A stretch of DNA of 61,891 nucleotides, filler included. It is 3 parts of 3 records of this genome, joined end to end, with 100 filler letters (N's around TTAATTAATTAA, not from the genome) between each part and the next. Parts side by side here need not be neighbours in the genome. Positions count along the whole stretch, not along the records: positions 31,170 to 50,784 come from SRR31156797_2159; 2 more parts are not named here. One strand, 5' to 3'. The notes beneath the pieces are model-generated. The model saw nothing but the letters and a program-made list of their open reading frames with translations, was not told the origin of the DNA and searched no databases. The translations under genes were made by a program, and so were the position numbers. Position 1 is the first letter of the stretch; each line of letters starts with the position of its first letter. Of this stretch, positions 9,441 to 50,784 are shown piece after piece.

Positions 9441-9468
9441 TCCTTTTTTTGAAAATGAACATTTAAAT

Positions 9469-12470: not shown

Positions 12471-12495
12471 TATATAATAGATTGCGATTTTCCCG

Positions 12496-12668
12496 GTCCG
12501 GGTGTTGATGCATCCCTACTGCATCAACACCCATTCGGACAATTGCATGAACATATTTCGCACTGTTTTCAGTGTACCATATTCTCCAAAGAACGACGGG
12601 GGGCTTCCCTACCTCCGTCACCACTTCCCTTTGCCGTCGGTCGCCTGGGCCGACGGCTTCTTTTTTTT
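12496..12668 (+). ncRNA. Candidate structured sRNA or 3'UTR with UCCCU loops, ending in a terminator
   Basis: Hairpins at 12496-12540 (loop TCCCTAC) and 12595-12619 (loop GCTTCCCTA), linker CTTCCCTT, terminator 12633-12668. Confidence 0.4.
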
Positions 12669-12800
12669 CAATTTAGTGCAAAAAAATAGTGTGTCCGTGT
12701 TGGAAATCGAGTATATTCCATTTCAATTTCTTTACACAGATGTTCATTTGGCATGCATAAATGTCTACATGGAGCCGTTTGTGTTAACGGAGGCGTGACG

Positions 12801-31169: not shown

Positions 31170-31221
31170 CATGACAAATTCACGCTAATCCGCGATGAGG
31201 CAAAAAAATTAAGGTAAAACT

Positions 31222-32022: not shown

Positions 32023-32060
32023 AAAATATCATTTGTGATGGAAGGGGCATTTTAACCAAC

Positions 32061-33836
32061 ATGATCCGACTGTTTTCCCTCATAACGGTTATGATTCTCT
32101 CTTATTTTTGCCCGGCCCGTGGGGCGGAGACGGGTCCAAAGACCGCCGCCAGAGCGGAAGCGGAGAGCTACTGGGTAACCACGGCCGGGAATGACACCAC
32201 CGGGGACGGCTCCGCCCTGAAACCGTGGAGCACCATAACGCACGCCCTTGGCCAGGTGCCCGACGGAACCACCATTTCAGTGGGACCGGGGACCTACACG
32301 GGGAGGGTGAGTTTAACCGGGAACTTTGCCCAAGGGGTCACGGTCCTTTCCCGGCCCCTCTACCAGGCCCGCCTTCGAAACGACGGCACGGTGGTCATCT
32401 GTTTCTACGGCCGGGGCATCACCCTGGAAGGGTTCGACATCGCCCATTCCGGCCCGGGAGGAGGCGCCCTGGTGATTCAGATCCAGGACCTGATCGGACC
32501 TCCCGGAGGCGATGAATATGTGTCCCGCATCACCCTTAGAAACAATATCCTGCACGACAGCTACAACAACGACATCCTGAAAATCAACAATGGGGCGGGG
32601 AATATTACGGTTGCGGGGAACCTCTTCTACAATCAAACGGGCCGGGATGAACATGTGGACATCAACAGCGTCACCCATGTTACCCTTCAGGACAACATCT
32701 TCTTTAACGATTTCGCGGGGAGCGGCCGGATTAACGGTAACGACACCGGCAGCTTTGTGGTCATCAAGGACAGCAACGGGGACAGCGACAGCAACCTGGG
32801 GAGCCGTAATATTGTTGTCAGGCGGAACATCTTCCTCAACTGGGAGGGATCCACGGGAAGCAACTTCGTGCTGGTGGGGGAAGACGGCAAATCGTACTTC
32901 GAGGCCCGGGACGTGCTGGTGGAAAACAATCTGATGCTGGGAAATTCCATTCATGTCATGCGGGCGCCCTTCGGGGTCAAGGGAGGGCGGGACATCACCT
33001 TCCGAAACAACACGGTGGTGGGTGACCTGCCGTCCTATGCCTATGCCATGCGGCTCAACACGGAAGGGGAGAACCCGCCCAACGACAATATCCTTTTCTA
33101 CAACAATATCTGGTCTGATCCCACCGGCACCATGGGGGCGGAAAACCCTTCGAGACCCAATGATTTTTCGGACACGCCCAAAGAAGAGACCCTCGCCTTT
33201 GCCCTGAACATCAATCTCTACTGGAACGGGGGCCAGCCCATTCCGTGGGACGGAGATGAAAAAATCAATTATACGGACGATGCCGGAGCGGTCATGGATG
33301 ATCCCCTCCTGAAGGGACAGACCGGGTTGATCCCGCCCCGGTGGAACCCCGGGGAAAACCGCTTCGGGGACGGTTCCACCACCATCAGACAGGCCTTTGC
33401 GGCCCTGGTCACCCGATACGGCGCCCTTGGCGCGGGGAGTCCCGCCTTGGACAGGGCCGATGCGGCCCATGCCCCTGCCCACGACATCTTGGGGAACCCC
33501 CGGTCCCTTGGGGCCGCCGTCCCCGACCTGGGGGCATATGAACTTCAGAGCACACCCCTGGTGGTGTACGTGTCGCCGGATGGTTCCTGCGACGGACGGA
33601 TCCCCTGTTATGGAAAGCTTCAGGAAGGGATGGATCATCCACATGCCGTTTTTACCATCCGGGTGGCCCAGGGCACCTATGATGAAAATGTAACATTGAA
33701 TGAAACCAAAGAGATCACCCTTCAGGCCGGATGGGATTCAACCTTTTCCGAACAAACCCCTCACGTAACCGTGATCCGCGCCCCCACGGTTACAAAAGGG
33801 AGTATCACCCTTCAGAACCTCATCATCAAACCATAA
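32061..33836 (+). CDS. Secreted right-handed beta-helix protein with a small C-terminal domain
   Basis: Signal peptide, [17 protein letters not shown], repeated xRNNx strands, PDLGAYE motif. Confidence 0.8.
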
Positions 33837-34467
33837 AACACACATTAAAAAGGGATTGATACCAAGCTGGCATGCCATATACGGCAACCGACGATCCTTT
33901 TTTTAATAATTCAGATGCCAATTCATGGGATGCCATGACCCGGAACAGGGGATACAAGGGGTTTTTTCTATAAAGATCCAGACATTGCATATGCATCTGC
34001 TCAGAAAAAGCGGTCGAGCAATCCTCGACAATGACAGCTTTAAAATTATGGCACACGGCATCCATTGCAGTGGTCAGGACACAAAAATTGGTGGCAATCC
34101 CGGCAACAGCACAAAGGGTGATCTGCCGGTCTCTGAGAATATTTTCAAGACCGGTATCAAAAAAGGCTGAAAACCTCGGTTTGGGAAGCCAGAGATCTTC
34201 GGATACCATGTCAAGATCAGCCACAACTTCCGCACCTTGGGTCCCCTTGATGGCGTGGGGGTGCATTTTGCCTGTAAAGAGAAAATCATCCTCTGAAAAG
34301 GCATCGGTTGAAAAAATAACGGGAAATCCTTTTTCACGAAACCCTTTGATCAAAAGATTGATCCGGGGAATAATTTTTCTGGCCAGAGGGGTTATGGGAT
34401 AATGATTTTCATCCTTAAAATAATCTTCTACCATATCAATGATCAACAATGCCGGTTTTTCTGTCAT
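33826..34467 (-). CDS. Isochorismatase-family cysteine hydrolase
   Basis: [22 protein letters not shown]. Confidence 0.9.
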
Positions 34468-35023
34468 GACCGCTCCTTTGGGATTTTTTTTTAATGATAA
34501 GGGAAACCCATGGCAAGGGGCTGATGAACCCTTGCCGTGGGGAATCGGAGTGATTTTTCTTATCTTAGGCTGTCGGACACATATAAATCCACCAAAATAA
34601 CGGTATAATAATAACGGCGATCTGATCGAAACTCAAAATTCGAGCAGATCAGATGAAGATATCAGGAGTATTTTAGTGGCATAAATTTCGTGAAAATCGG
34701 TCTTGAAATGGGATCCACTTAAATAATAACACATGCGGTGGTTCCTTTTTCTTGACCCAGAAGCCGATTTTCGCTATGCTTTTTGCTGAAAAAAGGATGT
34801 CTTATCGTCTATAGATATCCACTGCATTTATCTCGACCTCCTTCTGAATTCGATTTCTATTGTTCCGGCAGCACCTGGAATCCGCTGAATGCACCCTCGC
34901 TTGTAACGCTGAAGAAGTTGTTACATGGTGTCAGAACCGCTTTTGAACGAATTGCGGGAGAGCGGTTAAGCTCGAATCGGTACTGAATCAAATTGCTGTA
35001 TTGCCGAATTTCGTGACGTGTGA

Positions 35024-35095
35024 ATGACCGATGTTGACAATAAAGTTATGGTGGTGATCGCCCATCGGTTATGGACCATGCAAAACGTCGAACAG
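35024..35095 (+). pseudogene. Fragment of an ABC ATPase C-terminus
   Basis: NKVMVVIAHRLWTMQNV resembles the IAHRLSTI switch motif; no upstream ABC domain. Confidence 0.35.
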
Positions 35096-35232
35096 GGGTT
35101 GTTCTCAATCAGGGACCCATTACGGAACAGGGATCATGGGGGATGCTTCAATAGGGGAGAGAAAAGCGTCTTCCCTCGGATTAACCGTCATATCAAGACA
35201 GAAAAGCCGTCAGCGAACTTGGCACATTCATT

Positions 35233-36132
35233 ATGGCGACATACCATCACGTTATATTCGGTTTGGGCATCGAATCCGAGATCAAGTTATATGATCTGCC
35301 GATTCAAAAATGTGAACCGGATGTCGTGATTCAATACGGCAAGGTTCCGGATAGCCTGCCCGAACCGAAAGCAAAGGGTGTCCTCTACGAGGCCTCGCCG
35401 AACGCGTTCCTTTTAAAGATGGATCGTGTTGCCCGCTATTATGTCAGCGGCGGCAACCGTATCATTATCGAACCGGATCAAATGGGTCATACGGAAGATA
35501 TGCTGCTCTTTCTTATGGGATCAGCCATGGGGGCGCTACTACATCAGCGTAACATTTTGCCCCTGCACGGAAGCGCCGTGAAGGTGAACGGGAAAGGCGT
35601 TCTTTTTTCGGGTCCATCGGGCGCCGGCAAATCGACCCTGGCGGCCGGGTTCCATAAACAGGGCCACCCGGTGATAGCGGATGATATTTGCTCCCTCTCC
35701 GTCGAAAGCAACGGCCGGGCCAGGGTGGTTACCGGTCTCCCCCATCTCAAATTGTGGGCCGATGCCCTCAACAAACTGGAAACCGATCCAGCCAACTTAA
35801 ATCCAGTGCGGCATAACGGGAAGATAAAAAAATTCTATCTGCCCGCGGACCGGATTTGTGATACCCCGATCCCCGTTCAATCCGTTTTTGTCCTCGGAAC
35901 CACCAATACGGACCGGTTAGAGATCAAGCAGTTGAACGGGATGGATAAGGCGCAGACCCTTATCAAGAACACCTTCAGGATGAATTTTCTCAAAGGGCTT
36001 GGCGGAAAGGAGAAACACTTCGAGACCTGCGCGAAGGTTGCGGCGAAAACATCCATATTCAAGGTTACACGACCCAAAAGTCCTTTTCTTTTGAATGAAC
36101 TGATGGAACTTGTTGCGGACAAACTACCATGA
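35233..36132 (+). CDS. HPr-kinase-related lasso peptide kinase (PadeK-like)
   Basis: LHGSAV, GPSGAGKSTLA, IADD motifs; lasso cluster context. Confidence 0.85.
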   Translation: MATYHHVIFGLGIESEIKLYDLPIQKCEPDVVIQYGKVPDSLPEPKAKGVLYEASPNAFLLKMDRVARYYVSGGNRIIIEPDQMGHTEDMLLFLMGSAMGALLHQRNILPLHGSAVKVNGKGVLFSGPSGAGKSTLAAGFHKQGHPVIADDICSLSVESNGRARVVTGLPHLKLWADALNKLETDPANLNPVRHNGKIKKFYLPADRICDTPIPVQSVFVLGTTNTDRLEIKQLNGMDKAQTLIKNTFRMNFLKGLGGKEKHFETCAKVAAKTSIFKVTRPKSPFLLNELMELVADKLP

Positions 36133-36986
36133 AAGGGATTGCCTGGCTGGCCTCTTATCCCAAATCCGGCAATACCTGGTTTCGGGTTTTCTTGGCCAAC
36201 CTGCTTCAAAAATACGAAGCGCCTGCATCCATCAACACGCTGGAGTTGACAACCATTGCAAGCACAAGGGGGATTTTCGATGACAGTGTGGGTATCGAAT
36301 CATCGGATCTTACAATGGATGAAATCGAAAGGCTTCGCCCCCAAGTGTATATCCATCTGGCCGCAACCGCTGATGAAACACTATTCTTGAAAGCCCATGA
36401 CGCATATACCCATATTGATGAAAACACACTGTTATTCCCGGTTCAGGCGACCTTCGGGGCTGTCTATTTTATTCGCAATCCGCTGGATGTGGCGGTCTCC
36501 TTTGCACATCACCTGGGAGTTGATTATGACACGGCGATCTCAACAATGGCCGATGGAACCTGTAGCTTTTGTGATCACCATGACAGGCTTCCGAATCAAC
36601 TCCGCCAGAGGCTCCTCTCCTGGAGCGGTCACGTCCTGAGTTGGACGGAGGCGAAAATACCGACCTGTGTCCTGAAATATGAAGACATGAAAAATAAGCC
36701 GTTTAAGACCTTTGAAAGGGCTGCCCGCTTCTTGGGACTGAAACACGGAAAAAGCCGGATTCAAAAGGCCTTGTCATTAAGTCTATTTGAAGAGCTGCAA
36801 CGCCAGGAAATGGTAGAAGGTTTCAGGGAAAAGAGCCCGAAAACCAAATTGTTTTTTCGAAAAGGTGACGTCGGCTCATGGCGGGAGGAGTTGATTGAAG
36901 AGCAGGTGAAACAGATCATAAATGACCATGGAGAAGTCATGCATCGCTTCGGCTATCTCGGCGGGGATGGTGAAATCGTCTATTAA
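36129..36986 (+). CDS. PAPS-dependent sulfotransferase
   Basis: WLASYPKSGNTW (5'-PSB), IRNPLDVAVS (3'-PB), FFRKGDVGSW; ATGA overlap with kinase. Confidence 0.9.
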   Translation: MKGIAWLASYPKSGNTWFRVFLANLLQKYEAPASINTLELTTIASTRGIFDDSVGIESSDLTMDEIERLRPQVYIHLAATADETLFLKAHDAYTHIDENTLLFPVQATFGAVYFIRNPLDVAVSFAHHLGVDYDTAISTMADGTCSFCDHHDRLPNQLRQRLLSWSGHVLSWTEAKIPTCVLKYEDMKNKPFKTFERAARFLGLKHGKSRIQKALSLSLFEELQRQEMVEGFREKSPKTKLFFRKGDVGSWREELIEEQVKQIINDHGEVMHRFGYLGGDGEIVY

Positions 36987-37196
36987 CACGTATAATCAGG
37001 CATTTCACCGCTGAGTCGCGGATGACGAAGGTGTCATTATGATTATTGAATGTCCCATAAGAGACCGGAAGAATCAGCAATCAAATTATGAATCGTTATG
37101 GGTTGGATGGGTTCGCCCAAGAGGAAAGGATAGAGGGCAACATCTCCTTTAACGGTTCCGGACTTCCTGAATGAAGACAACTTGACAGGGGGGAAT

Positions 37197-37502
37197 ATGA
37201 CATCGGAGAGGATTCCAACAGTTACACTGAATACCGTTGTATGCCGGAGTGACGATATCATTAGCACCAAGATCGAAGATGAGGCGGTCATGATGAGCAT
37301 TCAAAAAGGGAAATATTTCGGCATGGATGATATCGCCAGCCGCATATGGGAATTGATCAAAACACCCTGCAAAGTAAAGGACCTGATTAATACCCTGATT
37401 GCGGAATACGCCGTGGATCACATAACATGTGAGCAGGATATTGTGCCGTTTTTGGAACAGTTATTGACAGAAGGTATTGTTGGCGTCGATACCCCAAGTT
37501 GA
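37197..37502 (+). CDS. Lasso peptide RRE, PqqD-family chaperone (B1)
   Basis: EAVMMSIQKGKYFGMDDIASRIWELI...EYAVD...CEQD. Confidence 0.9.
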   Translation: MTSERIPTVTLNTVVCRSDDIISTKIEDEAVMMSIQKGKYFGMDDIASRIWELIKTPCKVKDLINTLIAEYAVDHITCEQDIVPFLEQLLTEGIVGVDTPS

Positions 37503-37662
37503 GAGATTCCATCTTGCGGGCAAGAAAACCGCCTTCCGCCGAATGACCCTCCATCTTTCAGGTAACGCTTTGTTGGACTTCAATATCTTTTTTTTATGCT
37601 GCAATACCAAATGCTTGTCCTAAAGGAAAGGGTCTTTTCTTCAGGAATCACCCAGCCCAAGT

Positions 37663-37842
37663 CTAAGAAGAATATTGATAGGCAGTTCCATCTGTGTATC
37701 CGTCTCCTCCTGAAAAAGTATCTTCCATATGCAGAACTTTCGACTTCGGCTTATGCCAAGTCCGTTTAAAACCGGGATGCTTTTCTCCATCTTTCGACAA
37801 GGCATGGTCTTTTTTGGTTTGTTTGTTTGTCATATCAGACAT
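37663..37842 (-). CDS. Paeninodin-type lasso peptide precursor, 59 aa (MSDMTNKQTKKDHALSKDGEKHPGFKRTWHKPKSKVLHMEDTF-SGGDGYTDGTAYQYSS)
   Basis: Manually translated; AAGGAGGG RBS 6 nt upstream; WxxP..VL leader motif, Thr at -2, Asp8 acceptor, C-terminal Ser; directly downstream of the cyclase. Confidence 0.88.
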   Translation of the reverse strand: MSDMTNKQTKKDHALSKDGEKHPGFKRTWHKPKSKVLHMEDTFSGGDGYTDGTAYQYSS

Positions 37843-37920
37843 CTGTAGCCCTCCTTGTAGGCGCCTGTTGCAGATTGCAGGCGTTTGAACATATCCCCAT
37901 TCCTTTTGGAAAATGGTAAT

Positions 37921-39852
37921 TCATTGAAATTTTGTTAGAAAAAGTCCAATATCCAAGCCTCTCATCAATAGAAGCCTGGCCTGTTTCGCTGATTCTTGAT
38001 TAAGATGATAGCGAACCATGGCCAAGGTGGTCCACATGCGCGGCAGGTCCAGTATTTCACGGGCCAAGTCATTTCGTTCCAACTTTTTAAGAGCCGCAGC
38101 AATCTTATCATAATGTTTACAGATGCGTTGGCAGATGTCAGCACTTTGAAGGCCTCTTTTCGAATCAAACAATACCTTATGCGGGAGACGACCAGCCATG
38201 GCTCTTCTGATGAGCCATCGGGTTTGACCTTTATGGATATATTGATCCACGGGGATGCCCATGCAAAATTCCAATATCCTTTTGTCAGATGTTGGATCGC
38301 GTATTTCCATCCCATACCCGGCACCGAATGCTTGATACTTGACCAGCGAGGGACAACGACCCGGACGGATTATGGCGTAACGGTTCCGGATTGGATTATG
38401 AAGGATTCTGTTGGCGGGATCATATCCCCGGCTGTACATTAGACGGGTCAACTTCAACCGCTTGGCAAAGTCAGGGTTTAACGCGCTATTTGCGGCCCAG
38501 GGTTCATTGCCGTCCAGTCCGTAACGCATTTGATTGATTGCCCGCCAAGGCAGCATCGGCCGAATCACTTGCCCTAAAAACATCCTCACCGATCGCTTGG
38601 TGTATTTGCCGTCCTTATCTTTCAGTTCGGACAACAACCTGCCCCAGTCTCCCTTTCGGAACAATTCGGACAACCACCCCGTACCATTCCAAGAGATGGT
38701 GCCGTTACCTTTGTTCCCCGTTAAAAGGGAATCGACCCCCATTCGCCGCGCCAGAGCCATACGCGATATCAGCCATGGATAATTGGATGCGCTCGTACCG
38801 GGTTCGTCCCACAGCTCATGCATCCGTAATATGGCCGAGACCGGACTGACATGTTTTCCGGTTACATAGTGGAGATCCACGTTGCCTATATGGCGGCAGG
38901 TTGCCTCGATACACGGCGTTTCATCACCCCGATGGGTGGGAGACAGGGCGGAATCAAGATTGTACCCCGGCACGGCGCCGAAGGCGGCCAAACGGCGATC
39001 CCGTGCCGCCAATTCCTTTGCGGCAACCGCGGCTATGGATCCCGAATCCAGCCCCCCGCTCAGGCTTATGCCGATTTTGAACCTGCTTCGAAGCCTACAG
39101 CGAACCGCCTCTTCGAAAACTTCCGTAAAAGCGTGAACATAATCCTCATCCTTTTTGAATCGGATTTGGGGGCAGTCTTCCAGACGCCAGTACTGCTCCA
39201 TCCGTTCACCGTCATCCCCTACGAGCAAGCGATGGGCGGGCAGAAGTTGGTCAATATGGTTATGGCATGTTTTTGAACCGATCCCGCTTGGCCACCGTGC
39301 GCAGAGCTGTGCGATCGAAAGAAGATCAGGTCTTTTTTCCACCCACGGCAGGGCCAGCAATCCCTTCAAGCTCGAGGCAAATGCAAAAAGAGGCCCCCTT
39401 CGCAAAAAATAGAGGCCCGTATTGCCGCAATGATCCCGGGTCAAGAGCAGACGTTTCCCTTTGACATCCCAGAGGGCAAAGGCCCAGTCTCCCAAAAGAT
39501 GCGAAACACAGTTCATCCCCCATTTCTCATGGGCGGCCAGGATCAGGTCGCTGTCGGGGATATGGCTGGCTTCGCGCCATGGAAGACCCAGGGTTTCGAA
39601 TAGGTCTTCTCGGTTGTCGATCCTGGCCCTGGCCGTGAGGATTACGGTGTTTCCCGCATCGGCCCTGGGCATGCGGTCCCCCACTGCCTCGGGGGTATTA
39701 TGGGTCATCAGGTGCCCCAGACCGATGCAACCCCGGGTCCATATGTCTGAGCCATCCAATCCCCAGTACGACATCGCATTGCGCATGCGGATTAAATCAT
39801 CCCTATCCACCGGTTGATTGTCCGATCGGTATATGCCGAATATGCCGCTCAT
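37921..39852 (-). CDS. Lasso peptide cyclase (asparagine synthetase-like, C protein)
   Basis: MSGIFG (no glutaminase Cys), LSGGLDSGS ATP motif, RDPTSDKRILEFC, RRAMAG. Confidence 0.88.
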   Translation of the reverse strand: MSGIFGIYRSDNQPVDRDDLIRMRNAMSYWGLDGSDIWTRGCIGLGHLMTHNTPEAVGDRMPRADAGNTVILTARARIDNREDLFETLGLPWREASHIPDSDLILAAHEKWGMNCVSHLLGDWAFALWDVKGKRLLLTRDHCGNTGLYFLRRGPLFAFASSLKGLLALPWVEKRPDLLSIAQLCARWPSGIGSKTCHNHIDQLLPAHRLLVGDDGERMEQYWRLEDCPQIRFKKDEDYVHAFTEVFEEAVRCRLRSRFKIGISLSGGLDSGSIAAVAAKELAARDRRLAAFGAVPGYNLDSALSPTHRGDETPCIEATCRHIGNVDLHYVTGKHVSPVSAILRMHELWDEPGTSASNYPWLISRMALARRMGVDSLLTGNKGNGTISWNGTGWLSELFRKGDWGRLLSELKDKDGKYTKRSVRMFLGQVIRPMLPWRAINQMRYGLDGNEPWAANSALNPDFAKRLKLTRLMYSRGYDPANRILHNPIRNRYAIIRPGRCPSLVKYQAFGAGYGMEIRDPTSDKRILEFCMGIPVDQYIHKGQTRWLIRRAMAGRLPHKVLFDSKRGLQSADICQRICKHYDKIAAALKKLERNDLAREILDLPRMWTTLAMVRYHLNQESAKQARLLLMRGLDIGLFLTKFQ

Positions 39853-39885
39853 CTCGCGTCAATGCATTTCAGGGCACCGCCCTGA

Positions 39886-40446
39886 TCAGGGCCTTGGTGG
39901 CATGACGCCAGACTGAGCGATACAAAAATTCAGGCCCAAATATGGCTGACGGTTCAAATGGGCCCGACTTTCCCCGGCAGTCGCCATGGCGCTGGCGGAC
40001 ATTCGAACCTTTTTTTGGTCGTCGAAAACACAGAAGCTAAACGCATTGTCTCCATCCTCGTCTTCATCTGTTTTATTTCTTTGTATTTGAGCCGGATAGA
40101 CATTGCTGTCGGGTAAAGGCTTATTAGACGCAGATATAACCGCCCTCGGGGTATGGTCATGTTTGGGCAAGTTGGCTTCCGTCAATTTTACGGATGCGGA
40201 GCCGAACGATTGTCCGATGGCCCGATCCGTAAGGCCAGAGCCCTTGCCCCGGTGCATGGGGGTTCGCCCCTGCAGATTCGGAAGGGCAAAGTTTATTCTC
40301 CCGTCTCCGCCGTAAATATTTCCGATAATATTAAACAGTGAGGAGTTTTGAGATATTGGCATGATTTGTCCATTGCACCAAGCCCAGCCACGGGGTGGAA
40401 AGGTGTACGGAAAGATACGGATTTCACCGATAAATGGTTCCGCCAT
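39886..40446 (-). CDS. Phage tail-collar domain protein (microcystin-dependent/MdpB-like) 3
   Basis: MAEPFIGEIR, PRGWAWCNGQ, YGGDG, FALPNLQGR, LPKHDH, HLNRQP. Confidence 0.9.
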   Translation of the reverse strand: MAEPFIGEIRIFPYTFPPRGWAWCNGQIMPISQNSSLFNIIGNIYGGDGRINFALPNLQGRTPMHRGKGSGLTDRAIGQSFGSASVKLTEANLPKHDHTPRAVISASNKPLPDSNVYPAQIQRNKTDEDEDGDNAFSFCVFDDQKKVRMSASAMATAGESRAHLNRQPYLGLNFCIAQSGVMPPRP

Positions 40447-40457
40447 ATTGGCCTCCT

Positions 40458-41006
40458 TTAATTTCCGTTTGGAATTATCTTGCTCCAATAACATATGATG
40501 AAGCTGATGCAAAGCGTTGGCATCAGGTTTGTATGGGGAACATATTGACCGACCCGTGATACCGCCTTCTTCGCCAGGTTCACGATATATAATTCATCCG
40601 GTTCGAATATGAATCCTTTGGCGTCATATCCCTCTTCCCCATCAGGCTTGGACAACAGGGCGGCGGAAGACGGCTCGTCAAGGGTGCCGTCATCCTGACT
40701 TGCCTGCAGGGGATGATTGTGATACGGCATTTGGAAGTCCCTCACGTCAATCGCTTCAACGCCGAACTTGCTACCTTGAGGATGAGGGCTTAATCCGGGC
40801 CCCTGCCCGGCATGAACGGGAATTCTGCCTCGAAAGTCAGGCAATTTAAAGGTTTTTATTCCGTCTCCGCCATAGAGGTTCCCCAAGAGTGAAAAAAGAG
40901 GCTGGTAATCGGCTATGGCTAATTCCTGACCGTCACAAAAGGCCCAGTTTCTCGGGGCAAAAGGGCCCGCAAACATACGGATTTCTCCAAGAAAAGGATC
41001 ACTCAT
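40458..41006 (-). CDS. Phage tail-collar domain protein 2
   Basis: MSDPFLGEIR, WAFCDGQ, YGGDG, LPDFRGR, MPYHNH, HTNLMP. Confidence 0.9.
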   Translation of the reverse strand: MSDPFLGEIRMFAGPFAPRNWAFCDGQELAIADYQPLFSLLGNLYGGDGIKTFKLPDFRGRIPVHAGQGPGLSPHPQGSKFGVEAIDVRDFQMPYHNHPLQASQDDGTLDEPSSAALLSKPDGEEGYDAKGFIFEPDELYIVNLAKKAVSRVGQYVPHTNLMPTLCISFIICYWSKIIPNGN

Positions 41007-41544
41007 TGTTTTGCCTCCTTTCTTTGCGGGTGGGGTACACCCCATCAAGGGCGATAATGAACAGGATCACCAGAGAGGGTTGCATGTTTTCATGGCCTAG
41101 CGATCCGCCTGTGCCGGTACAGGTATCGGGATTCAGTTGCGTTAAATTTGTCGGGTCATTATAGACATTGGCCGGTTTACCGGTTTTTTTCCATATGGCC
41201 TTTGCATAAGTTTTTCCAGAGAAACGCCCTTTGGTGCCTTCACTGGTGGTACCCATGAACGGATGCGTATGCCGGGGGAGCTCCGAAGCGCTGAGGGTGA
41301 CCAATTCGGCTCCCCCCTGTTTTCCCTGCCGGGGTACGTCATGGCCGGGGTGGACCGGGACCCGGCCGCGAAGATCCGGAAGCCCGAAAGTGTATACCCC
41401 GTCTCCTCCGAATTGGGTGCCCAGCACTGAATACAACACCTCATGATCGCGCATATACATTAGTCCGCCATCGCATTTGGCCCATTTTCGGGGCGCAAAC
41501 GTAAATCCCGCCATTCTGATTTCTCCCATAAAAGGTTCCGCCAT
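40999..41544 (-). CDS. Phage tail-collar domain protein 1
   Basis: MAEPFMGEIR, WAKCDG, FGGDG, LPDLRGR, LPRHTH, HENMQP. Confidence 0.9.
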   Translation of the reverse strand: MAEPFMGEIRMAGFTFAPRKWAKCDGGLMYMRDHEVLYSVLGTQFGGDGVYTFGLPDLRGRVPVHPGHDVPRQGKQGGAELVTLSASELPRHTHPFMGTTSEGTKGRFSGKTYAKAIWKKTGKPANVYNDPTNLTQLNPDTCTGTGGSLGHENMQPSLVILFIIALDGVYPTRKERRQNNE

Positions 41545-41620
41545 TTTGGCACCTCCTTATCTTAAGGGTTGAAAAAGACCGTTTAAAGGGTGGGTTTGCC
41601 GCATTTGCTGCAATCCCCTA

Positions 41621-41950
41621 TTATTCTTTCAGACGGTTGATGATGGCCTCATACTGGTAACCGGTATCGTTCTTGCCCACCGGCACGATGAAAAGTTCGA
41701 AATCGCCCATCTTGCCATGGGTGAATTTGTGGATCTGCTGATCCAAGAAGAGATCCCCCGCACCCTGGAACAGGAGAGAAAACCCTTCGGTGGCATCGGT
41801 CTCCTTCTTCACGGCCTCCACCAGTTCCACCTCGGTTTCCGTTGGACCGATATCCTCCTCTTCCAGGTCTTCCATGGCTTCGCCGAATCTGATTTTGAAG
41901 CGGGAATTGAGATGTTCGGCAAACGTGTCATAGGTTATCTTTTCGGACAT
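41621..41950 (-). CDS. DUF6916-like protein
   Basis: TFAEHLNSRF, FSLLFQG, DQQIH, LFIVPVG, YEAIIN pattern. Confidence 0.75.
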   Translation of the reverse strand: MSEKITYDTFAEHLNSRFKIRFGEAMEDLEEEDIGPTETEVELVEAVKKETDATEGFSLLFQGAGDLFLDQQIHKFTHGKMGDFELFIVPVGKNDTGYQYEAIINRLKE

Positions 41951-41977
41951 GCCTTTCTCCTTTCTGCTCTTTGCATT

Positions 41978-42481
41978 TTAGGGTTTGTGATCGCCTACCG
42001 GCGCCTCCTCAGACTGCCACTCCATATATTGATAGGCCCCTTCCGTTTTCAGGACCTTGAATCCCAAACGCCGATACAGACGCAAAGCCGGATTGTTCGG
42101 CTCCACATGGAGACTGACCCGAGCCCCTTTCCGGCGCCCCTCTTCAAGCAGTTCCCTTACCAGGCAGGTGCCGATCCCTTGGTTGCGGTGCTCCCGCAGC
42201 AAGGTGATGTCCATCAATCGGATGTGGTGGTCCTGGCGGTGGACGTAGATCCGGCCGATCTTCGTATCTTCCAGACGGATGAGATGGAAATCCCCTCCCT
42301 CGTAGTGTGTTTGATAATGATGATGCTGAAGTTGGAACTGCCATTTTAGAAAGCGGATCTTCTCCTCTTCGCTCCAGGGGTAATGGATCATTTCAAAATC
42401 CCGGGAAACGCAGTAGATCCGCCGCAGGAAGTCCATGTGCCCGGGCTTGATCGGTTCCAGATGGATTCGGGAGCGGTCCAT
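41978..42481 (-). CDS. GNAT N-acetyltransferase
   Basis: QFQLQHHHY, DITLLREHRNQGIGT, LHVEPNNPALRLYRRLGF; start could be GTG 42499. Confidence 0.88.
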   Translation of the reverse strand: MDRSRIHLEPIKPGHMDFLRRIYCVSRDFEMIHYPWSEEEKIRFLKWQFQLQHHHYQTHYEGGDFHLIRLEDTKIGRIYVHRQDHHIRLMDITLLREHRNQGIGTCLVRELLEEGRRKGARVSLHVEPNNPALRLYRRLGFKVLKTEGAYQYMEWQSEEAPVGDHKP

Positions 42482-42833
42482 GGTTTTAGCTGCTCTCACC
42501 TCCTTTCAGTCTTGCCTCGGAAAGAAGTTCCGGGGTCCCTTTCTATAATCCTGATCCGCGGGTACGGACCCTTAATAAACGGCTTAGCGTGAAAATGGTG
42601 AAGAGGTTTCGTGCTTTTCAGATGAGAACGAGGAGAGGTGTCATGTTCGGACCCTTCCCCGTGGTGGAAAGGCCCTTCAGAATACCAGCAGCAGCAGAGT
42701 TCAACGGAGAATCAACATATTATACTTAATTAGACACTCTAACATAAAAATCAAGAATAAATGAGAATATTTATTTTTTATAGATAACATGCTTAGATGG
42801 CGACTGAACCGACCTCATCCTGGTAAGACGCGA

Positions 42834-44588
42834 TCACGAATCCACCGATTTGCCAGTTACTTCAGTAATCAATCCTTTATCAAGTGTTACGACCTTGTCA
42901 GCCATCAGGAGGGTGGATGACCGGTGGGCGATCACCACAATGGTGATCTCTCCATTGAGCCCGTTTATGGCCTTTTGTATTTGGCGTTCGCTTTCAGAGT
43001 CCACCGAACTTGTGGCCTCATCCAGCAGCAGCAAATCGGGTTTGCGCAGCAAAGCCCTCGCCAGCGCAATCCTCTGCCGCTCGCCGCCGGAAACCCGTAC
43101 CCCCCGATCTCCCACCACCGTGTCCAGCCCATCGGGCATACGGGATACAAACCCATCGGCCGCGGCCGAACGAAGGGCGGACCAGAGTTCCGAATCCGTG
43201 GCGCCGGGCAAAGCCCAGCGCAGGTTGGCCCGAATGGTATCGTGAAAAAGAAAGCTCTCCTGGGGTACATACCCCACCGATCGCCTCCATCGGTGCAGCA
43301 GCGATCCGCTCAGGGGTTGATCATCGATCCTTACCTCCCCCTTTTCAGGGAAAAGCAACCCTAATATCAGATCGGCCAAGGTGCTTTTTCCGGCTCCCGA
43401 TGGCCCGACAACGGCCGTTATGCCTCGGGCCGGAATCGTCACATCCACATCCCGCAGGGCCCAGACCTCCCTTCGGTCTTCATAGCGAAACGACACATGA
43501 AACAACCGGATTTCCCTCCTTATCCGCATGGGGTTCGTGGCGCCTTTAACGGGCTCTTTCATCGATTCAAACCGTTTTTTCATCTCAAGGGCCGCCTCAA
43601 AGGAAGGGAGGGCGTTTGCGATCCGCTGAAAGCATTGCTGGAGCATGGAAAACCGGGGCAGAAGGCGGGCGAAAAGAAAAACAATGATGAGTAAACCGGC
43701 AGCCGGTATATGTGCCACTTCCACCGCCACGAAAAAGAATGCCGCAAGGGCCGCGGCCGCCCCGATTTCGTAGTACATGCGCGTGGCCGAATTAATCCTG
43801 GTAAAACGGACCATCTGGCCTGTAACGCCGCCGGTGATGCTTTTAAAATTTTTCTCGTGGACATCCTCCAGGCTGAAGCTTTTGGCTATTTTAATGCCGC
43901 CCAGATGCTCCGTAACGGCCGAATACATGTCATTCATGGAACTCCGAAATGCCTTTCCCGCACCGTGAGCCCGACGATTGTGAGGTCGCAGCATCAGAAG
44001 GAACGCGCCGCCGCAGATCAATGCAAAGAGCGTCATGGGAACTGAAATCATGAATGCCACGGCGATATGAACCCCTACAATGACGATGGTTCCGGTCAAC
44101 TGGAGCAATTGCTGGGTTGCAAAACCCACCCGCTGAATATCCGCCGTCAGAACATGGGTCACGTCCGATGCCTTTGTCTTCAGAAAACAGAGCCACTGAG
44201 CACTGCAAAGGCCGTGGTAAAGGCTATTGCGCAGTGATTCGGTAAACTTATAGATAATGCGCGAGTTGAGGACTTCCCGGTATCGGGTGACCGCGGCATG
44301 GATTGCCACAATGCCCACGTATACGCACAGGATGGATGGAAGGGTCAGCGGCAGGCCGAGCCATATGAAAAGTTTACCCACATGATTTGTAAGTCCCATC
44401 GGACCGACCAGACCGATTACGCTCAAAAAGGGGATGAGCATCAGAAGCCCCACCCCTTGGGTCAATCCCAAAAGCACCATCAGGGCAAGGGAAAGCCATG
44501 CCCTGAAACCCGAATACTCAAGCAGTGTTCTCATATAGGGAAATACCGCGCCCTGTCCGAAGTTTTTCCCCAAGAGTTTCCTATTCAT
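42834..44588 (-). CDS. ABC exporter, fused permease/ATPase (lasso D protein)
   Basis: Six TM segments, GPSGAGKST, VSGGERQR, LLLDEAT, IAHR. Confidence 0.92.
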   Translation of the reverse strand: MNRKLLGKNFGQGAVFPYMRTLLEYSGFRAWLSLALMVLLGLTQGVGLLMLIPFLSVIGLVGPMGLTNHVGKLFIWLGLPLTLPSILCVYVGIVAIHAAVTRYREVLNSRIIYKFTESLRNSLYHGLCSAQWLCFLKTKASDVTHVLTADIQRVGFATQQLLQLTGTIVIVGVHIAVAFMISVPMTLFALICGGAFLLMLRPHNRRAHGAGKAFRSSMNDMYSAVTEHLGGIKIAKSFSLEDVHEKNFKSITGGVTGQMVRFTRINSATRMYYEIGAAAALAAFFFVAVEVAHIPAAGLLIIVFLFARLLPRFSMLQQCFQRIANALPSFEAALEMKKRFESMKEPVKGATNPMRIRREIRLFHVSFRYEDRREVWALRDVDVTIPARGITAVVGPSGAGKSTLADLILGLLFPEKGEVRIDDQPLSGSLLHRWRRSVGYVPQESFLFHDTIRANLRWALPGATDSELWSALRSAAADGFVSRMPDGLDTVVGDRGVRVSGGERQRIALARALLRKPDLLLLDEATSSVDSESERQIQKAINGLNGEITIVVIAHRSSTLLMADKVVTLDKGLITEVTGKSVDS

Positions 44589-44615
44589 GGCCCATGGGCC
44601 TTTCCACGTAAATCT

Positions 44616-45137
44616 TCATTTCCGGTACCAGGAGATCGGCAACCTTGTTGTTTGTGAGATCCCTTTCAAAAATCGGTCCCCAAAGGTGGCTATCACCGTG
44701 AATTGGCGGTGGCCTGGAGCACCCGTCAGGACCGTGTCGCCACAGCGAATCCAGGCGTGGGCGCTCAGGCCGTTCGACCCTTCTTTTGAAAGGCCCAGAT
44801 AGAGAGTACTTGGTATATCACGGCGCTTGAGCATTATTTTGGCGGTCATGGCCCGGGCCAGGCATTTGCTTTCCCAGGGGGTATAACGGCCCGCTGCCTG
44901 AACCGCCCAGGAAATAATGCGTGCCAATCGGTTACATTCGGAAGCCTCTTGGGGTGTTTTATGAAGGCCGTGCCCCAGAAAGGGAGCGATTCGGCGAAAG
45001 GGCACCAGCAGAATCGCCAGTCGGGAGATTCCTAGGCAGAAAAAGGCTTCCAAAAACAACCGCTGCTCCGTGGCTGATCGCGAGTGGAACTTTGTCCAAA
45101 CAGTCCATAAACCATGAAAAGTATTCTCTTTGGTCAT
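44616..45137 (-). CDS. Lasso peptide leader peptidase (B2, transglutaminase-like)
   Basis: PWESKCLARA (catalytic Cys), LYLG, LSAHAW (His); start placed at ATG 45137. Confidence 0.88.
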   Translation of the reverse strand: MTKENTFHGLWTVWTKFHSRSATEQRLFLEAFFCLGISRLAILLVPFRRIAPFLGHGLHKTPQEASECNRLARIISWAVQAAGRYTPWESKCLARAMTAKIMLKRRDIPSTLYLGLSKEGSNGLSAHAWIRCGDTVLTGAPGHRQFTVIATFGDRFLKGISQTTRLPISWYRK

Positions 45138-45158
45138 CTTGGCCTGAACTATTTTAAA

Positions 45159-45197
45159 GTCATGAGCGACGCTCTTTACATCCCTACATTTCGCATC
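45159..45197 (+). repeat. Direct repeat copy 1 (34/39 identical to 46703-46741)
   Basis: GTCATGAGCGACGCTCTTTACATCCCTACATTTCGCATC. Confidence 0.75.
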
Positions 45198-45414
45198 AAA
45201 CTCAAGTTTGAAAGATAGCACCTTCATTACCGGGTCTTCAAACTTCAGCCAGAATAAAAAACAAGACGGCAAATCATCAAGGAAAAGAGTGATTGCCAAT
45301 ACCGGGTTCGTCCGATTCATTTGTGGCCCAACGGCCGGTTATTTCGTGAAGATTCTCCGCCGCCGAACTACAAATGAATCCAAGTCAGTGCTATAAATTC
45401 GGCTTTACCAAGCT

Positions 45415-45915
45415 TTATCCCAGTATAACCGGCGTATACTGCCCGTTTATATTTATCAACGCCATGGGCAGGAATATCAGGGTCGACCCAATGGACATTC
45501 TTTCGCTTGCCTCCTCCTTGTTTCCCATCACAGACACGAGCAGGTACTCATAATGTATTTCACGTATGGACTCTACCAGGCCGGCAATCTGCTGGAGGTT
45601 GTCATACTCTGTACCGGCGCCGTTGTTTTTAAGGAAGGCATCCAGCTCGCCTGTGGGACAATGACGGCACGTAAAATTATGAGAGGTCGCAATAAGGATA
45701 TAGTCCTGGTTTCCGTCATACTTCTTGACGGCAGACGGTACGGTGTTCACGGAATCAGACGCCACATTGGCGACAACTTTCAGGTCCTTGCGATCTACGA
45801 TTACCATCCAGTAATAGGGATTACCCGGCAGACCCACATCTTTCAGGTCGTAACGGGCTGTGCCGATTCCGATAGCCTCATTAAAAACGCTTAACGGCAG
45901 TTTTTCATAACTCAT
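45415..45915 (-). CDS. Hypothetical protein
   Basis: 166-aa ORF with AAGGAG RBS; no family recognised. Confidence 0.7.
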   Translation of the reverse strand: MSYEKLPLSVFNEAIGIGTARYDLKDVGLPGNPYYWMVIVDRKDLKVVANVASDSVNTVPSAVKKYDGNQDYILIATSHNFTCRHCPTGELDAFLKNNGAGTEYDNLQQIAGLVESIREIHYEYLLVSVMGNKEEASERMSIGSTLIFLPMALININGQYTPVILG

Positions 45916-46057
45916 TTCCGGCTCCTTTCATCTTTTAAGTTATCGGTTAAATTGCCGTGCTGTCTTCTGCCTGCGACTCTCTCCGTATGGCTCTCACAGG
46001 CACCTGCGGTTACTTCACTTAAATTATGCCAAAGCACGCGTGCTTTCAGGAAAAGGT

Positions 46058-46570
46058 CTAAAAGTCCAGGGGACTTTCCGCCTCTTTCGCCGTTTTGCTG
46101 GGTACCCAGTGGGTATAGATCATTGTCGTTCTCACATGGGCATAACCTGACATTCTTTGAATCGTTCGGATATCGTGGCCCGACGCAAGCAAATGCGTAG
46201 AAAAAGAATGCCGGAATTTGCGGCAAGCGGCATGTTTTATCACTCGTCCATTCCGCACGGATTCCTTCACGGCGTGTTGAAAAATTGTCTCATGGAGATG
46301 ATGCCGACTCTCCCTCTTCGCCGGTTTCTTATTTTTTAACGATTCTCTTGTGGAAACACCCATTGAAATCTCCGGTCCGCGCATACGTCGGGGTATTTGC
46401 GATCGAGGGCACCCGGGCATTTGGACACCCCCCAACCATCATTGGGATCTTTCTCGCGAATTGTTCTGACCTTTTTCGAATGGTCCTGAAGTGGGATTTT
46501 GAGGGAGACGGGAAGCTTCGGTTTGGCAGTGGCTGCCGATAATGGGTGCGATGATTCCCGGCCGGACATT
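46058..46570 (-). pseudogene. Degenerate integron integrase (IntI-like tyrosine recombinase)
   Basis: ALDRKYP...QWVFPQENR in one frame; RHHLHE...[20 protein letters not shown]...TTMIYTH in another; N-terminus missing. Confidence 0.85.
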
Positions 46571-46702
46571 CCTGTTGTCCCCGCTGTTGAAGGTTACGGT
46601 CTACACTGCGGAATAAGGCGGATTTAAAAGAATCACTACTCCCCAATAGATGAAAACTTTCTGAATGTCAAGCTGAATATACCATTAATAGTGAATTCCT
46701 GG

Positions 46703-46787
46703 GTCATAAGGGACGCTCTTTATATCTTTACATTTCGCATCCAAAAAACCCTCAATGGGAATCGTTTTCCATGAAATGTAAAGATAT
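46703..46787. repeat. Direct repeat copy 2, with a 15-bp internal inverted repeat (REP/MITE-like)
   Basis: GTCATAAGGGACGCTCTTTATATCTTTACATTTCGCATC; ATATCTTTACATTTC (46722-46736) / GAAATGTAAAGATAT (46773-46787). Confidence 0.7.
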
Positions 46788-46818
46788 GGGATCTCCCCTT
46801 ACTCGTGAGAGTGTAAGT

Positions 46819-48558
46819 TTAAATGGATGTGTTACGATCCCCTCTTAACTCCTGCCGCTTTTCCCCAGTTTCCGCGGCATCGACTACGCCCGTTTCGGGA
46901 TGGATGATCACACCGTAACTGTTTTCAGCCGCTTCCATACTCACATACCCTTCCCGGACGTCCGCTTCAACCCGCTCCGGGTCCCGTTCCAGGGGATCGC
47001 CGTACCCCCCGCCGCCGGCAGCATCCATGGTGACCACATCCCCCGGCATCAGCTGGCTGAGGCCGTAGGGGTTGCCGGGGTTCCCGTTTACGAGGAAGGC
47101 CGCTTTGGCGCCCTCGCCGCCTCCGAAGAGCCCTTCGGGGGCATACCGGTGCCGTCCCGACTGAATCCCCAGGTTGACGGGCGGAAGGGGTGCGTATGCA
47201 TCGTCCGGGATTCTCAAAATCATGCGCCGACCCAGGCCCCCCTTCATGCGGCCGATGCCGCCGGAGTCGGTCAGCAGCGCCCGTTTTTCCACGATGAGGG
47301 GGGTGTCGCTCTCTAAAATCTCCACCGGGGTGTTGGCACCGTTGGCGGGAAAAATAAATACGTAATTACCGTCCCCCCGGGAGCTTGCCCCCATGCCGCC
47401 GCCCCGGATCCGCACCGAGTGCCAGGGCCGTCCGTCACCGTGTTTGCCGTAGAGCACATTCATATTGGCGGGGGTCCCGCCGCTCCCGGCGATGACCCGG
47501 TCCGGCAGTACATCGGCCATGGCCCGGTAGATAATCTCCGTTATGAAGTGGCCGATCTGCATGCGGGCCGCAACGGCCGCCGGAAATTTGCAGTTGACCA
47601 CGCTCCCCAGGGGCGCCTCCATACTGATGGGGGCGGTGCAGCCGTCATTGTTGGGGATATCCGGGTCGAACATGCTTTTCATGGCCATGAACACATAGGC
47701 GTAGGTAAAATTGAAGACCACATTGCCGCCCCAGTCCACCTGGGGGGAAGAGCCGGCCAGATCCACCATGATATGGCTCCCTTTCACATGCACGGCCGCC
47801 TTGATGACGATATCGTCCTTCCCTTCCATCTGCTCAATAATCCCTTCCGAAGTATATACCCCGTCAGGGACTTTCAAGATGGCTTCCCGCATGCTCTTTT
47901 CCGTGCGGTCGATGATTTCATCGGCCAGATCATCCAGTCCATTAAGCCGGTATTCATCCAGCATCTGGGAGATTTTCTCCCCACACACATGGTTGGCGGC
48001 GATCTGGCTCCGGATGTCCCCGATCACCTCGTCCGGGGTCCGCACATTCCACTTGATCATTTCCACCACCGATTCATTGATCAGGTCCCGGTCGTAGAGC
48101 TTCACCAGGGGGATAAAAAGACCATCCTCATAAACATCATGGTTGTCGGAGGAGACCCTGCCGCCGATGTCCGAATGGTGAAAAACACAGGCGGTAAAAG
48201 CGGTCAGTTTACCGTTATGAAAGATGGGGCTGAAGACGCACACATCATTTAGATGGCCCGCGAGAGCCCAGGGGTCGTTTGTGATATAAACATCCCCTTC
48301 ATGGTAGCTCTCCTCCGGAATCCGGGTCACCAGTTTTTTGATGCCCAACGCCATGGCGCCGGACTGTCCGGGGGTGGCAAAGGAGCCTTGTGCCAGCTCA
48401 CGTCCTTTGCGGTCCGTAAACATGCAGGTATAGTCGTGGGCGTCCCTCAGCAGGCTCGAAAAAGCCGTGCGCGAAACAGCGGTGTCCGCTTCATCCACAA
48501 TGGATATGAGCCTCCGCCAGAGTATTTCGATGGTGATGGGATCAAAATGTTGACCCAT
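46819..48558 (-). CDS. Hydantoinase B/oxoprolinase family protein
   Basis: DPITIEIL, TNDPWALAGHLND, HHSDIGG, DSGGIG, GGGGYGDP. Confidence 0.92.
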   Translation of the reverse strand: MGQHFDPITIEILWRRLISIVDEADTAVSRTAFSSLLRDAHDYTCMFTDRKGRELAQGSFATPGQSGAMALGIKKLVTRIPEESYHEGDVYITNDPWALAGHLNDVCVFSPIFHNGKLTAFTACVFHHSDIGGRVSSDNHDVYEDGLFIPLVKLYDRDLINESVVEMIKWNVRTPDEVIGDIRSQIAANHVCGEKISQMLDEYRLNGLDDLADEIIDRTEKSMREAILKVPDGVYTSEGIIEQMEGKDDIVIKAAVHVKGSHIMVDLAGSSPQVDWGGNVVFNFTYAYVFMAMKSMFDPDIPNNDGCTAPISMEAPLGSVVNCKFPAAVAARMQIGHFITEIIYRAMADVLPDRVIAGSGGTPANMNVLYGKHGDGRPWHSVRIRGGGMGASSRGDGNYVFIFPANGANTPVEILESDTPLIVEKRALLTDSGGIGRMKGGLGRRMILRIPDDAYAPLPPVNLGIQSGRHRYAPEGLFGGGEGAKAAFLVNGNPGNPYGLSQLMPGDVVTMDAAGGGGYGDPLERDPERVEADVREGYVSMEAAENSYGVIIHPETGVVDAAETGEKRQELRGDRNTSI

Positions 48559-48653
48559 GGTCTCCTCCGTTTTTCAAAGGGGGCAGTTGTCAGGGGGCAG
48601 GGGGCAGAAAAATCAGCTTCAAGTTTCATCCTGCCCCCTGCACCCTCTAATAA

Positions 48654-50741: not shown

Positions 50742-50755
50742 GCATGCCTCCTAAA

Positions 50756-50784
50756 TAGCTGTTAGCTGTTAGCTGTTAGCTGTT
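50756..50784 (+). repeat. Heptamer tandem repeat (TAGCTGT)x4 at contig end
   Basis: Directly visible; probably caused the assembly break. Confidence 0.85.

Follow-up and report, generated by a model that had tools for sequence, protein, structure and literature searches.

The window analysed here is a stretch of 61,891 nt, filler included, made of joined parts of three records, in which positions 31,170 to 50,784 come from SRR31156797_2159. It contains a biosynthetic gene cluster for a lasso peptide, and between the ABC exporter and the cyclase of this cluster lie five further genes, coding for a GNAT N-acetyltransferase, a small DUF6916 protein and three proteins with the Collar domain of phage tail fibres (collar1 to collar3; Table 1). 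Together, the five genes are almost certainly one full copy of a non-phage cassette that is widespread, referred to below as the collar cassette. Judged by its sequence, the lasso cluster carries a conserved protein module without a published description. Beyond the window, the pairing of collar cassette and lasso genes recurs at 11 loci from at least four phyla, with a lasso kinase in every one of them, and a real functional coupling of the cassette to the lasso pathway is likely. The explanation of the whole that we put forward, possible though somewhat short of probable, is a recruited collar head that partners the lasso peptide.

The three collar proteins score 77.1, 93.0 and 87.7 bits against the Collar family PF07484 (gathering cut-off 24) and match the tail protein family phrog_9116 of the PHROGs database almost end to end, with E values from 1.8e-19 (residues 7-167 of collar1) to 4.9e-16. 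An HxH motif and a later H-x-N are invariant in all 27 collars that were aligned. The profile of these 27 sequences matched phage fibres of known structure in the PDB, the HxH stretch included (8kec, E 9.1e-10; T4 gp12, 1ocy, E 1.4e-6), and the HxH of the collars aligns to the HxH of fibre 8kec. In T4-type fibres, HxH binds metal. The proteins are about 180 amino acids long and the Collar domain starts at residue 7, which leaves no fibre shaft. Each of the window's three collars falls to a different one of the three paralogue profiles (margin 136 bits). They are ancient, distinct paralogues of a phage tail-fibre tip, one of each per cassette.

An earlier, sequence-only reading of the window had described three tail-collar genes with a GNAT and a DUF6916-like gene inside a lasso cluster. 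Its Collar, DUF6916 and GNAT assignments were borne out by Pfam matches, the HxH motifs RHTH, YHNH and KHDH are present, and its gene order and spacing, including the 33 nt between collar3 and the cyclase, proved right when the coordinates were rechecked. It had also described the collars as free of signal peptides, in agreement with N-termini that, by eye only, have no hydrophobic signal-like stretch. Neither the DUF6916 protein nor the collars of the window carry an export signal; the local DUF6916 is without the Tat (twin-arginine translocation) signal seen on the DUF6916 of some other cassettes (L131, L136, L150). The absence of capsid, sheath, tube and baseplate genes that it had pointed out holds for the genes scanned from about 28.5 to 52 kb, in which neither Pfam nor PHROGs found such families. 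Finally, the distribution of GNAT homologues, which occur at three of five collar-bearing and at one of 75 collar-free lasso loci, supports a view of the five genes as one module, and not as tailoring genes of the lasso pathway.

The latter counts come from 80 genome loci that were fetched around relatives of the cyclase. A genome scan with the single cyclase gave no relative, and a query based on an alignment of 58 relatives (38-60% identical) was used instead. The sequence-only reading had proposed counting how often collars and lasso genes co-occur, and had named absence of the pairing from other genomes as a sign of chance insertion. Collars are present at five of the 80 cyclase loci, four of which have both kinase and sulfotransferase (4/29 such loci, as against 1/51 of the remainder); the remaining one, a contig of 10 kb, carries a kinase fragment at its edge. 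Far from being confined to the window, the pairing is found again in four phyla or more, the further cases being a second cluster in the Wallbacteria genome and, from unbiased samples, the short contig L083, two metagenome contigs, a third Bacteroidota genome and a second Sporomusa species (Table 1), whose collars are 88-92% identical to those of Sporomusa silvacetica and thus belong to the same lineage. The five genomes with the pairing have 23 Collar matches in all, of which 20 fall within lasso-type clusters (3/3 in each of three genomes, 8/8 in Wallbacteria, distributed over L043 and L096, and 3/6 in Prolixibacteraceae), and in three of the five the genes of the lasso cluster are the sole Collar genes. 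By random expectation, two loci in a 5-Mb genome lie within 5 kb of each other in about two cases per thousand. On these counts, the lasso-collar pairing is not due to chance. The two Wallbacteria clusters each have a collar triplet with a GNAT, and the same genome holds a third, two-gene collar set with a GNAT beyond a protein of 1269 amino acids and no Pfam family that adjoins the first cluster.

The interleaving of cassette and lasso genes varies from lineage to lineage. The window and Sporomusa share the order ABC, GNAT, DUF6916, collars, (precursor), cyclase on one strand. In the Syntrophobacter locus L001, the GNAT gene has shifted to the other strand, between sulfotransferase and PqqD. 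The order in the Bacteroidota loci L065 and L054 is collars, formyltransferase-like gene, precursor, cyclase, and in these two as well as in S. silvacetica (L034) the precursor sits between collars and cyclase. The collars of L179 are placed between B2 and cyclase, and those of L127 are followed by a radical-SAM gene ahead of kinase and PqqD.

The collar cassette also exists without lasso genes. Metagenome contigs scanned with six collar2 orthologues, the 27-row collar alignment being too diverse for that scan, yielded 80 loci, and most of the longer ones have three collars plus a GNAT and/or a DUF6916 homologue. GNAT homologues flank the collars at loci without lasso genes, too. A frequent neighbour of the cassette is a giant protein (for instance at L085, L180 and L181): an open frame of at least 800 amino acids is found in 19 of the 25 metagenome loci of at least 8 kb, a mechanical count in which some GC-rich frames may be spurious. 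The window has no open frame of this size and hence no adjoining giant protein. Among 20 genomes of Sporomusaceae, the five triplets include two of the lasso type and two of the giant-protein type, at most 50% identical between the contexts. The triplet of Bacteroidota cassettes is followed by a formyltransferase-like gene (Formyl_trans_N plus Formyl_trans_C) in place of GNAT and DUF6916, and such a gene still follows the triplet of L097, which has no lasso genes. The triplet and formyltransferase-like gene of L097 are nearly identical to the other copy in the Prolixibacteraceae genome, which suggests that the second triplet arose by a recent duplication. A group II intron reverse transcriptase/maturase is encoded on the minus strand of L097 (2891-4504), 4 kb from this second triplet and formyltransferase copy.

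The history of the association was approached through trees of both partners. In a tree of 86 cyclases, the best topology uniting the ten collar-linked cyclases, a group defined by the collar trait albeit after a first tree had been viewed, was rejected with a log-likelihood 638 lower (approximately unbiased test, p 4.4e-9), and well-supported branches imply no fewer than five changes of the trait. The single-gene collar tree was poorly resolved, and a concatenated tree of 48 cassettes was used. On it, the lasso label requires four changes compared with a mean of 9.3 for shuffled labels, and none of 500 shuffles came as low. The lasso-linked cassettes form deep groups (the window with L001, L114 and L127; L043 with L096; L034 alone; and Bacteroidota) that fall outside a clade of 28 cassettes, all of giant-protein or unassigned context. 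We read these trees as the record of an old association that has often been lost or moved between cluster lineages and that was long retained either way.

The sequence-only reading had proposed that the collars form a heterotrimeric fibre. A prediction with all three chains reached a complex score of 0.58, against 0.16 for the best of three controls. At least 96% of contacts are shared between its runs, and the partner pLDDT (predicted local distance difference test) is at least 81; the model of the collar3 monomer has a pLDDT of 42.8. Among solved complexes, 51 of 78 pass the mark for this score, as do 2 of 108 mismatched pairs; passes at 0.60 or below comprise only five of the 78 solved complexes and all four passing mismatches (of 180). 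According to the available part of PMC12724248 (J Virol 2025), three consecutive Collar (PF07484) proteins of the virophage DSLV2 co-purify as a 1:1:1 heterotrimer, migrate near 55 kDa in native polyacrylamide gels and appear in electron microscopy as short fibres that bind Synechococcus cells. The proposal of a 1:1:1 trimer thus gains weak support from the score and the virophage precedent, while homotrimers were not distinguished from it. Three distinct paralogues that occur once each, the DSLV2 precedent and the three-chain score are the reasons for which we consider that the collars may form a mixed trimer.

The GNAT probably acetylates the N-termini of the collars. Its best NCBIfam match is RimI, below the cut-off. 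At GNAT-bearing loci, 122 collar N-termini have a recognised start, and 108 of them carry Ala or Ser as the second residue; in the formyltransferase-type cassettes of Bacteroidota, all 11 have Asp, Thr or Glu there. One sequence is included twice in this comparison, which is confounded with phylogeny. As the predicted lasso core lacks Lys and uses up its N-terminal amine in ring closure, a target of the GNAT other than the peptide can be argued. The DUF6916 protein is predicted by AlphaFold2 to be an all-beta fold (pLDDT 90.1). Fold searches of BFVD and the PDB gave no match at E ≤0.001, and the protein has no PHROG match. The closest likenesses, all faint, are phage head-tail adaptor/stopper proteins and barrels of a "43 kDa tail protein" (E 0.02-0.3 in BFVD, 0.36 in the PDB). 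A role of DUF6916 as chaperone is a guess.

A neighbourhood that is conserved yet reshuffled across phyla is a classic sign of proteins acting together, and because cassette and lasso genes have such a neighbourhood, we favour their functional coupling. The cassette may have been recruited as an optional accessory of the kinase/sulfotransferase-type lasso pathway. The three collars would assemble 1:1:1 into a metal-clamped trimeric head by way of the invariant HxH and H-x-N, and the GNAT would acetylate their Ala or Ser N-termini. The mature peptide would bear a phosphate on its C-terminal Ser and probably sulfate on Tyr, and the head would then hold, escort or aim it, in place of a giant surface protein. 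Such a direct partnership with the modified peptide is a more doubtful step than the coupling as such; we favour it because the head descends from a binding module and because the lasso pathway replaces the giant surface protein as neighbour. A still more specific version, in which a heterotrimeric collar head binds the phosphorylated or sulfated tail of the peptide and, as a two-part device with it, either carries it to the surface of a target cell or presents it, is unlikely. If this version is true, a ribosomal natural product would have a dedicated protein carrier that stems from a phage fibre tip, and lasso peptide and giant surface protein would be interchangeable partners of one ancient recognition module.

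Several observations weigh against a head that partners the peptide. For one, the collars lack an export signal, and it is hard to see how the head would meet an exported peptide outside the cell. Most cassettes are unlinked to lasso genes, which occur in only 2 of the 25 metagenome loci of at least 8 kb. Conversely, 75 of 80 lasso clusters of this class have no collars, including close relatives of the collar-bearing ones that share the same kinase and sulfotransferase, which makes the cassette optional for producing the peptide, an accessory and not a core component. In 401 genomes of Desulfobacterota, 27 have a Collar match, 15 the cyclase (E ≤1e-80) and four both; of these four, one is linked (the seed genome), one unlinked at a distance of 82 kb (G260), and two have the genes on separate small contigs. 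Among 401 genomes of Bacteroidota, 84 have Collar matches and 31 a cyclase-like match (E ≤1e-60, where weaker ones may be asparagine synthases), and collars adjoin the cyclase in two genomes only, the seed and G788. Triplet and lasso cyclase are non-adjacent not only in G260 but also in G776, where they lie on different contigs. The complex test does not separate a hetero- from a homotrimer, and likeness to solved phage fibres may drive its pass. Finally, the idea of a basic head suited to an anionic peptide found no support: the variable regions of lasso-linked heads are, if anything, more acidic, with a mean charge of −6.6 versus −2.2 and −3.8 in the others (Mann-Whitney p 0.03, kinship uncorrected).

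Some of these points suit an account in which cassette and lasso cluster lie side by side but share no mechanism. Both would be accessory modules directed at other cells, one a head for adhesion or recognition and the other an antimicrobial or signalling peptide, co-inherited on mobile islands, maybe co-regulated, but acting separately. The lasso cluster of the window lies next to a truncated tyrosine-recombinase gene (Table 1) in a compositionally distinct block (30-51 kb, G+C content 0.51, versus 0.46 and 0.41 in the flanks), and the contrast in G+C content suggests that the block is an acquired island. Moreover, the cassette occurs mostly without lasso genes, lasso clusters occur mostly without the cassette, and Sporomusaceae hold both contexts. 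However, the genes are interleaved and not merely abutting, in a different way in each lineage, and the arrangement is kept across phyla even where cyclases are only 30-40% identical. Three genomes have no collar genes outside the lasso cluster, and no compositional break separates cassette from lasso genes: in the window, the G+C content of the cassette genes, overall and at third codon positions, is inside the range of the lasso genes, so that a recent insertion is not suggested. We regard separate action as rather unlikely. A role inside the cell, with a cytoplasmic head (together with DUF6916) that sequesters the peptide before export as self-protection or scaffolds the tailoring enzymes on the precursor, would account for the lack of export signals on the collars and the local DUF6916, for the position of the cassette directly upstream of precursor and cyclase, and for the unusual wealth of tailoring genes in collar-bearing clusters. 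Yet the same cassette mostly accompanies secreted giant proteins, a setting in which an intracellular role would hardly make sense, and close collar-free clusters share kinase and sulfotransferase, which makes this role quite unlikely.

Two further alternatives were weighed. The GNAT might be a lasso tailoring enzyme of the albusnodin type with the collars as passengers, as GNAT-type acetylation of a lasso peptide is known (available part of PMC8498205) and the GNAT gene of L001 sits between sulfotransferase and PqqD. This is very improbable given that GNAT homologues track the collars and flank them at giant-protein loci, that the predicted core lacks Lys, and that the formyltransferase-like substitute of Bacteroidota also follows the lasso-free triplet of L097. 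Hardly conceivable is a decayed prophage or tailocin remnant. The Collar domains, the matches to tail-fibre PHROGs and the nearby integrase fragment would fit such an origin, but it is contradicted by intact reading frames, by the lack of any other phage structural family among the genes scanned (about 28.5-52 kb), and by the conservation of the same three paralogues across phyla with bacterial partners. A recruited collar head as partner of the lasso peptide remains the explanation that we prefer.

The lasso genes themselves have the make-up of a kinase-type cluster: B1, B2, cyclase, an HPr-kinase homologue, and a core with an acidic residue at position 7-9 and a Ser end. B1 and B2 score above the curated NCBIfam cut-offs, whereas the cyclase stays below its own (400 versus 525 bits) despite an E value of 1.6e-119. 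The precursor gene has an AAGGAGG site 7 nt ahead of its ATG. The predicted core, SGGDGYTDGTAYQYSS, offers Asp8 for ring closure and contains three Tyr, no Lys and a terminal Ser, which is the residue phosphorylated by lasso kinases (available part of PMC8498205). At related loci, candidate precursors read from intergenic open reading frames have the same leader type, an acidic residue at 8 or 9 and, save one, a terminal Ser. Characterised lasso cores usually start with Gly, Ala, Ser or Cys. Those predicted for the candidate precursors of L054 (3008-3136 and 9397-9525), L065 (6129-6254), L114 (6659-6838), L127 (6998-7186) and L034 (9809-9985) start with Tyr, Asp, Asn, Gln or Leu, cleavage sites having been inferred solely from a Thr at −2.

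Tailoring genes abound in collar-bearing lasso clusters, including radical-SAM enzymes, methyltransferases, a 2-oxoglutarate (2OG) oxygenase, an Asp/Asn hydroxylase and a nucleotidyltransferase. Further tailoring genes were seen in L127 (3793-5175, 10343-12373) and L179 (5933-7615, 12717-13463, 17677-19491); the extras of these two loci comprise two radical-SAM proteins (one with a below-threshold B12-binding match), a methyltransferase, a 2OG-Fe(II) oxygenase, an Asp/Asn beta-hydroxylase, a second sulfotransferase and a glycosyltransferase. In S. silvacetica, sulfate-activation genes (a PAPS_reduct-domain protein and a fusion of GTPase and adenosine 5′-phosphosulfate kinase; L034, 2406-5086) lie between B2 and the exporter and are compatible with a sulfated product. 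Two kinase copies were considered as a mark of collar-bearing loci and discarded as a trait of one cyclase clade (3/5 versus 6/75).

In the direction of transcription, the minus strand of the window reads B2, ABC, GNAT, DUF6916, collar1, collar2, collar3, cyclase, precursor, and a convergent plus-strand block (35233-37502) holds the HPr-kinase homologue, the sulfotransferase and the PqqD-type B1. The genes from GNAT to cyclase are tightly packed in an operon-like layout: the start of collar2 overlaps the stop of collar1 by 8 nt, and the spacers measure 11, 33, 27 and 76 nt, those 33 nt separating collar3 from the cyclase. The minus-strand intergenic spacers from GNAT to precursor are without a terminator-like site, and the sole minus-strand match of this kind in that stretch falls within the DUF6916 gene. 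A transcription unit from GNAT to precursor would probably begin in the 334-nt gap behind the ABC gene. Rfam matched nothing across 34000-46800, this gap included, and promoter-like matches were no more frequent than by chance (8 observed, 7.2 expected). At 32061-33836 on the plus strand, 1.4 kb from the kinase gene, lies the gene of a 591-amino-acid protein with a signal-like N-terminus and a weak match to DUF1565 (beta-helix). This DUF1565 protein, orf166 and the isochorismatase have a counterpart in none of the fetched loci.

Table 1. Genes of the lasso-collar cluster in the window and corresponding loci elsewhere (MAG, metagenome-assembled genome; aa, amino acids)
Locus	Feature	Position	Strand	Match or remark
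Window	Truncated tyrosine recombinase	46058-46435	minus	C-terminal third of Phage_integrase model, E 2.5e-12; about 740 nt beyond B2
Window	Lasso B2 leader peptidase	44616-45320	minus	NF033537, E 8.3e-32, 110 bits (cut-off 33)
Window	ABC exporter, permease-ATPase fusion	42834-44588	minus	Pfam ABC_tran + ABC_membrane
Window	ABC-GNAT gap, 334 nt	42500-42833		Only long spacer
Window	GNAT N-acetyltransferase	41978-42499	minus	GTG start, alternative ATG at 42481; PF00583, E 8.3e-16
Window	DUF6916, small beta-rich protein	41621-41950	minus	PF21880, E 5.3e-22
Window	collar1, 181 aa	40999-41544	minus	RHTH motif; PF07484, E 1e-21
Window	collar2, 182 aa	40458-41006	minus	YHNH motif; PF07484, E 1.1e-26
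Window	collar3, 186 aa	39886-40446	minus	KHDH motif; PF07484, E 5e-25
Window	Lasso cyclase, asparagine-synthetase-like, 643 aa	37921-39852	minus	NF033535, E 1.6e-119; Pfam Asn_synthase
Window	Lasso precursor, 59 aa	37663-37842	minus	AAGGAGG ribosome-binding site; predicted 16-residue core, Ser-Ser end
Window	HPr-kinase-like lasso kinase	35233-36132	plus	Pfam Hpr_kinase_C, 39.1 bits (cut-off 33.3)
Window	Sulfotransferase	36129-36986	plus	Pfam Sulfotransfer_1, E 1.9e-24
Window	Lasso B1, PqqD-type leader-binding protein	37182-37502	plus	NF033536, 88.9 bits (cut-off 80)
L001	Collars at cyclase locus			Syntrophobacter MAG; cyclase 60% identical to the window's
L034	Collars at cyclase locus			Sporomusa silvacetica DSM 10669
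L043	Collars at cyclase locus			Wallbacteria MAG
L054	Collars at cyclase locus			Prolixibacteraceae MAG
L054	Formyltransferase-like genes	1995-2918, 8406-9323
L065	Collars at cyclase locus			Bacteroidales MAG
L065	Formyltransferase-like gene	5191-6111
L083	Kinase, sulfotransferase, DUF6916, collar			3.2-kb contig; all in one direction
L096	Second lasso-collar cluster			Wallbacteria genome of L043
L097	Formyltransferase-like gene	8545-9468
L114, L127	Lasso-collar pairing			Metagenome contigs
L179	PqqD, B2, three collars, formyltransferase-like gene upstream of cyclase			Third Bacteroidota genome
L179	Formyltransferase-like gene	11755-12678
L182	Arrangement as L034			Second Sporomusa species

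Lasso clusters have been heavily mined, and their accessory genes are usually taken as tailoring enzymes. With the five accessory genes forming a separate, conserved module of phage descent, annotations that count the GNAT among the tailoring enzymes are probably mistaken. The conserved link offers a concrete partner both to phosphorylated lasso peptides and to the collar cassette, whose proteins are known as MdpB/COG4675, and with the same arrangement in the cultured strain S. silvacetica DSM 10669 the question is open to bench work. We found no paper that links phage tail collar genes with lasso clusters, although supplementary tables of genome-mining studies may list the co-occurrence. No paper was found on DUF6916, and those on PF07484 and COG4675/"microcystin-dependent protein" were, by title and abstract, not on this topic.

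Among known systems, acetylated lasso peptides of the albusnodin type differ from the present case in that here the core has no Lys and the GNAT travels with the collars. Kinase-type lasso clusters such as those of paeninodin (PadeK/ThcoK), SyanK and pseudomycoidin have been described, and putative sulfotransferase and nucleotidyltransferase genes have been noted in such clusters (available part of PMC8498205). The cluster of the window resembles these in the split B1/B2, the cyclase, the ABC exporter, the HPr-kinase homologue and a core that ends in Ser; collars, DUF6916 and a cassette GNAT are not mentioned in the available part of that source (PMC8498205). With the virophage DSLV2, the window shares three consecutive small Collar genes. 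In DSLV2, however, these are virion parts encoded beside capsid genes, whereas here they are bacterial genes in a lasso cluster, accompanied by GNAT and DUF6916, and their assembly is only predicted. The tips of T4 gp12 and gp37 (1ocy, 5iv5; also fibre 8kec) likewise have a Collar domain followed by an HxH head (profile E 1.4e-6 to 9.1e-10). They differ in that T4 has a homotrimer where the window encodes three different chains, which come without a shaft and without tail or baseplate genes. The collar cassettes beside giant proteins also contain these three paralogues together with GNAT and DUF6916, the proteins being 34-46% identical to those of the window; here, the lasso pathway stands in place of the giant protein.

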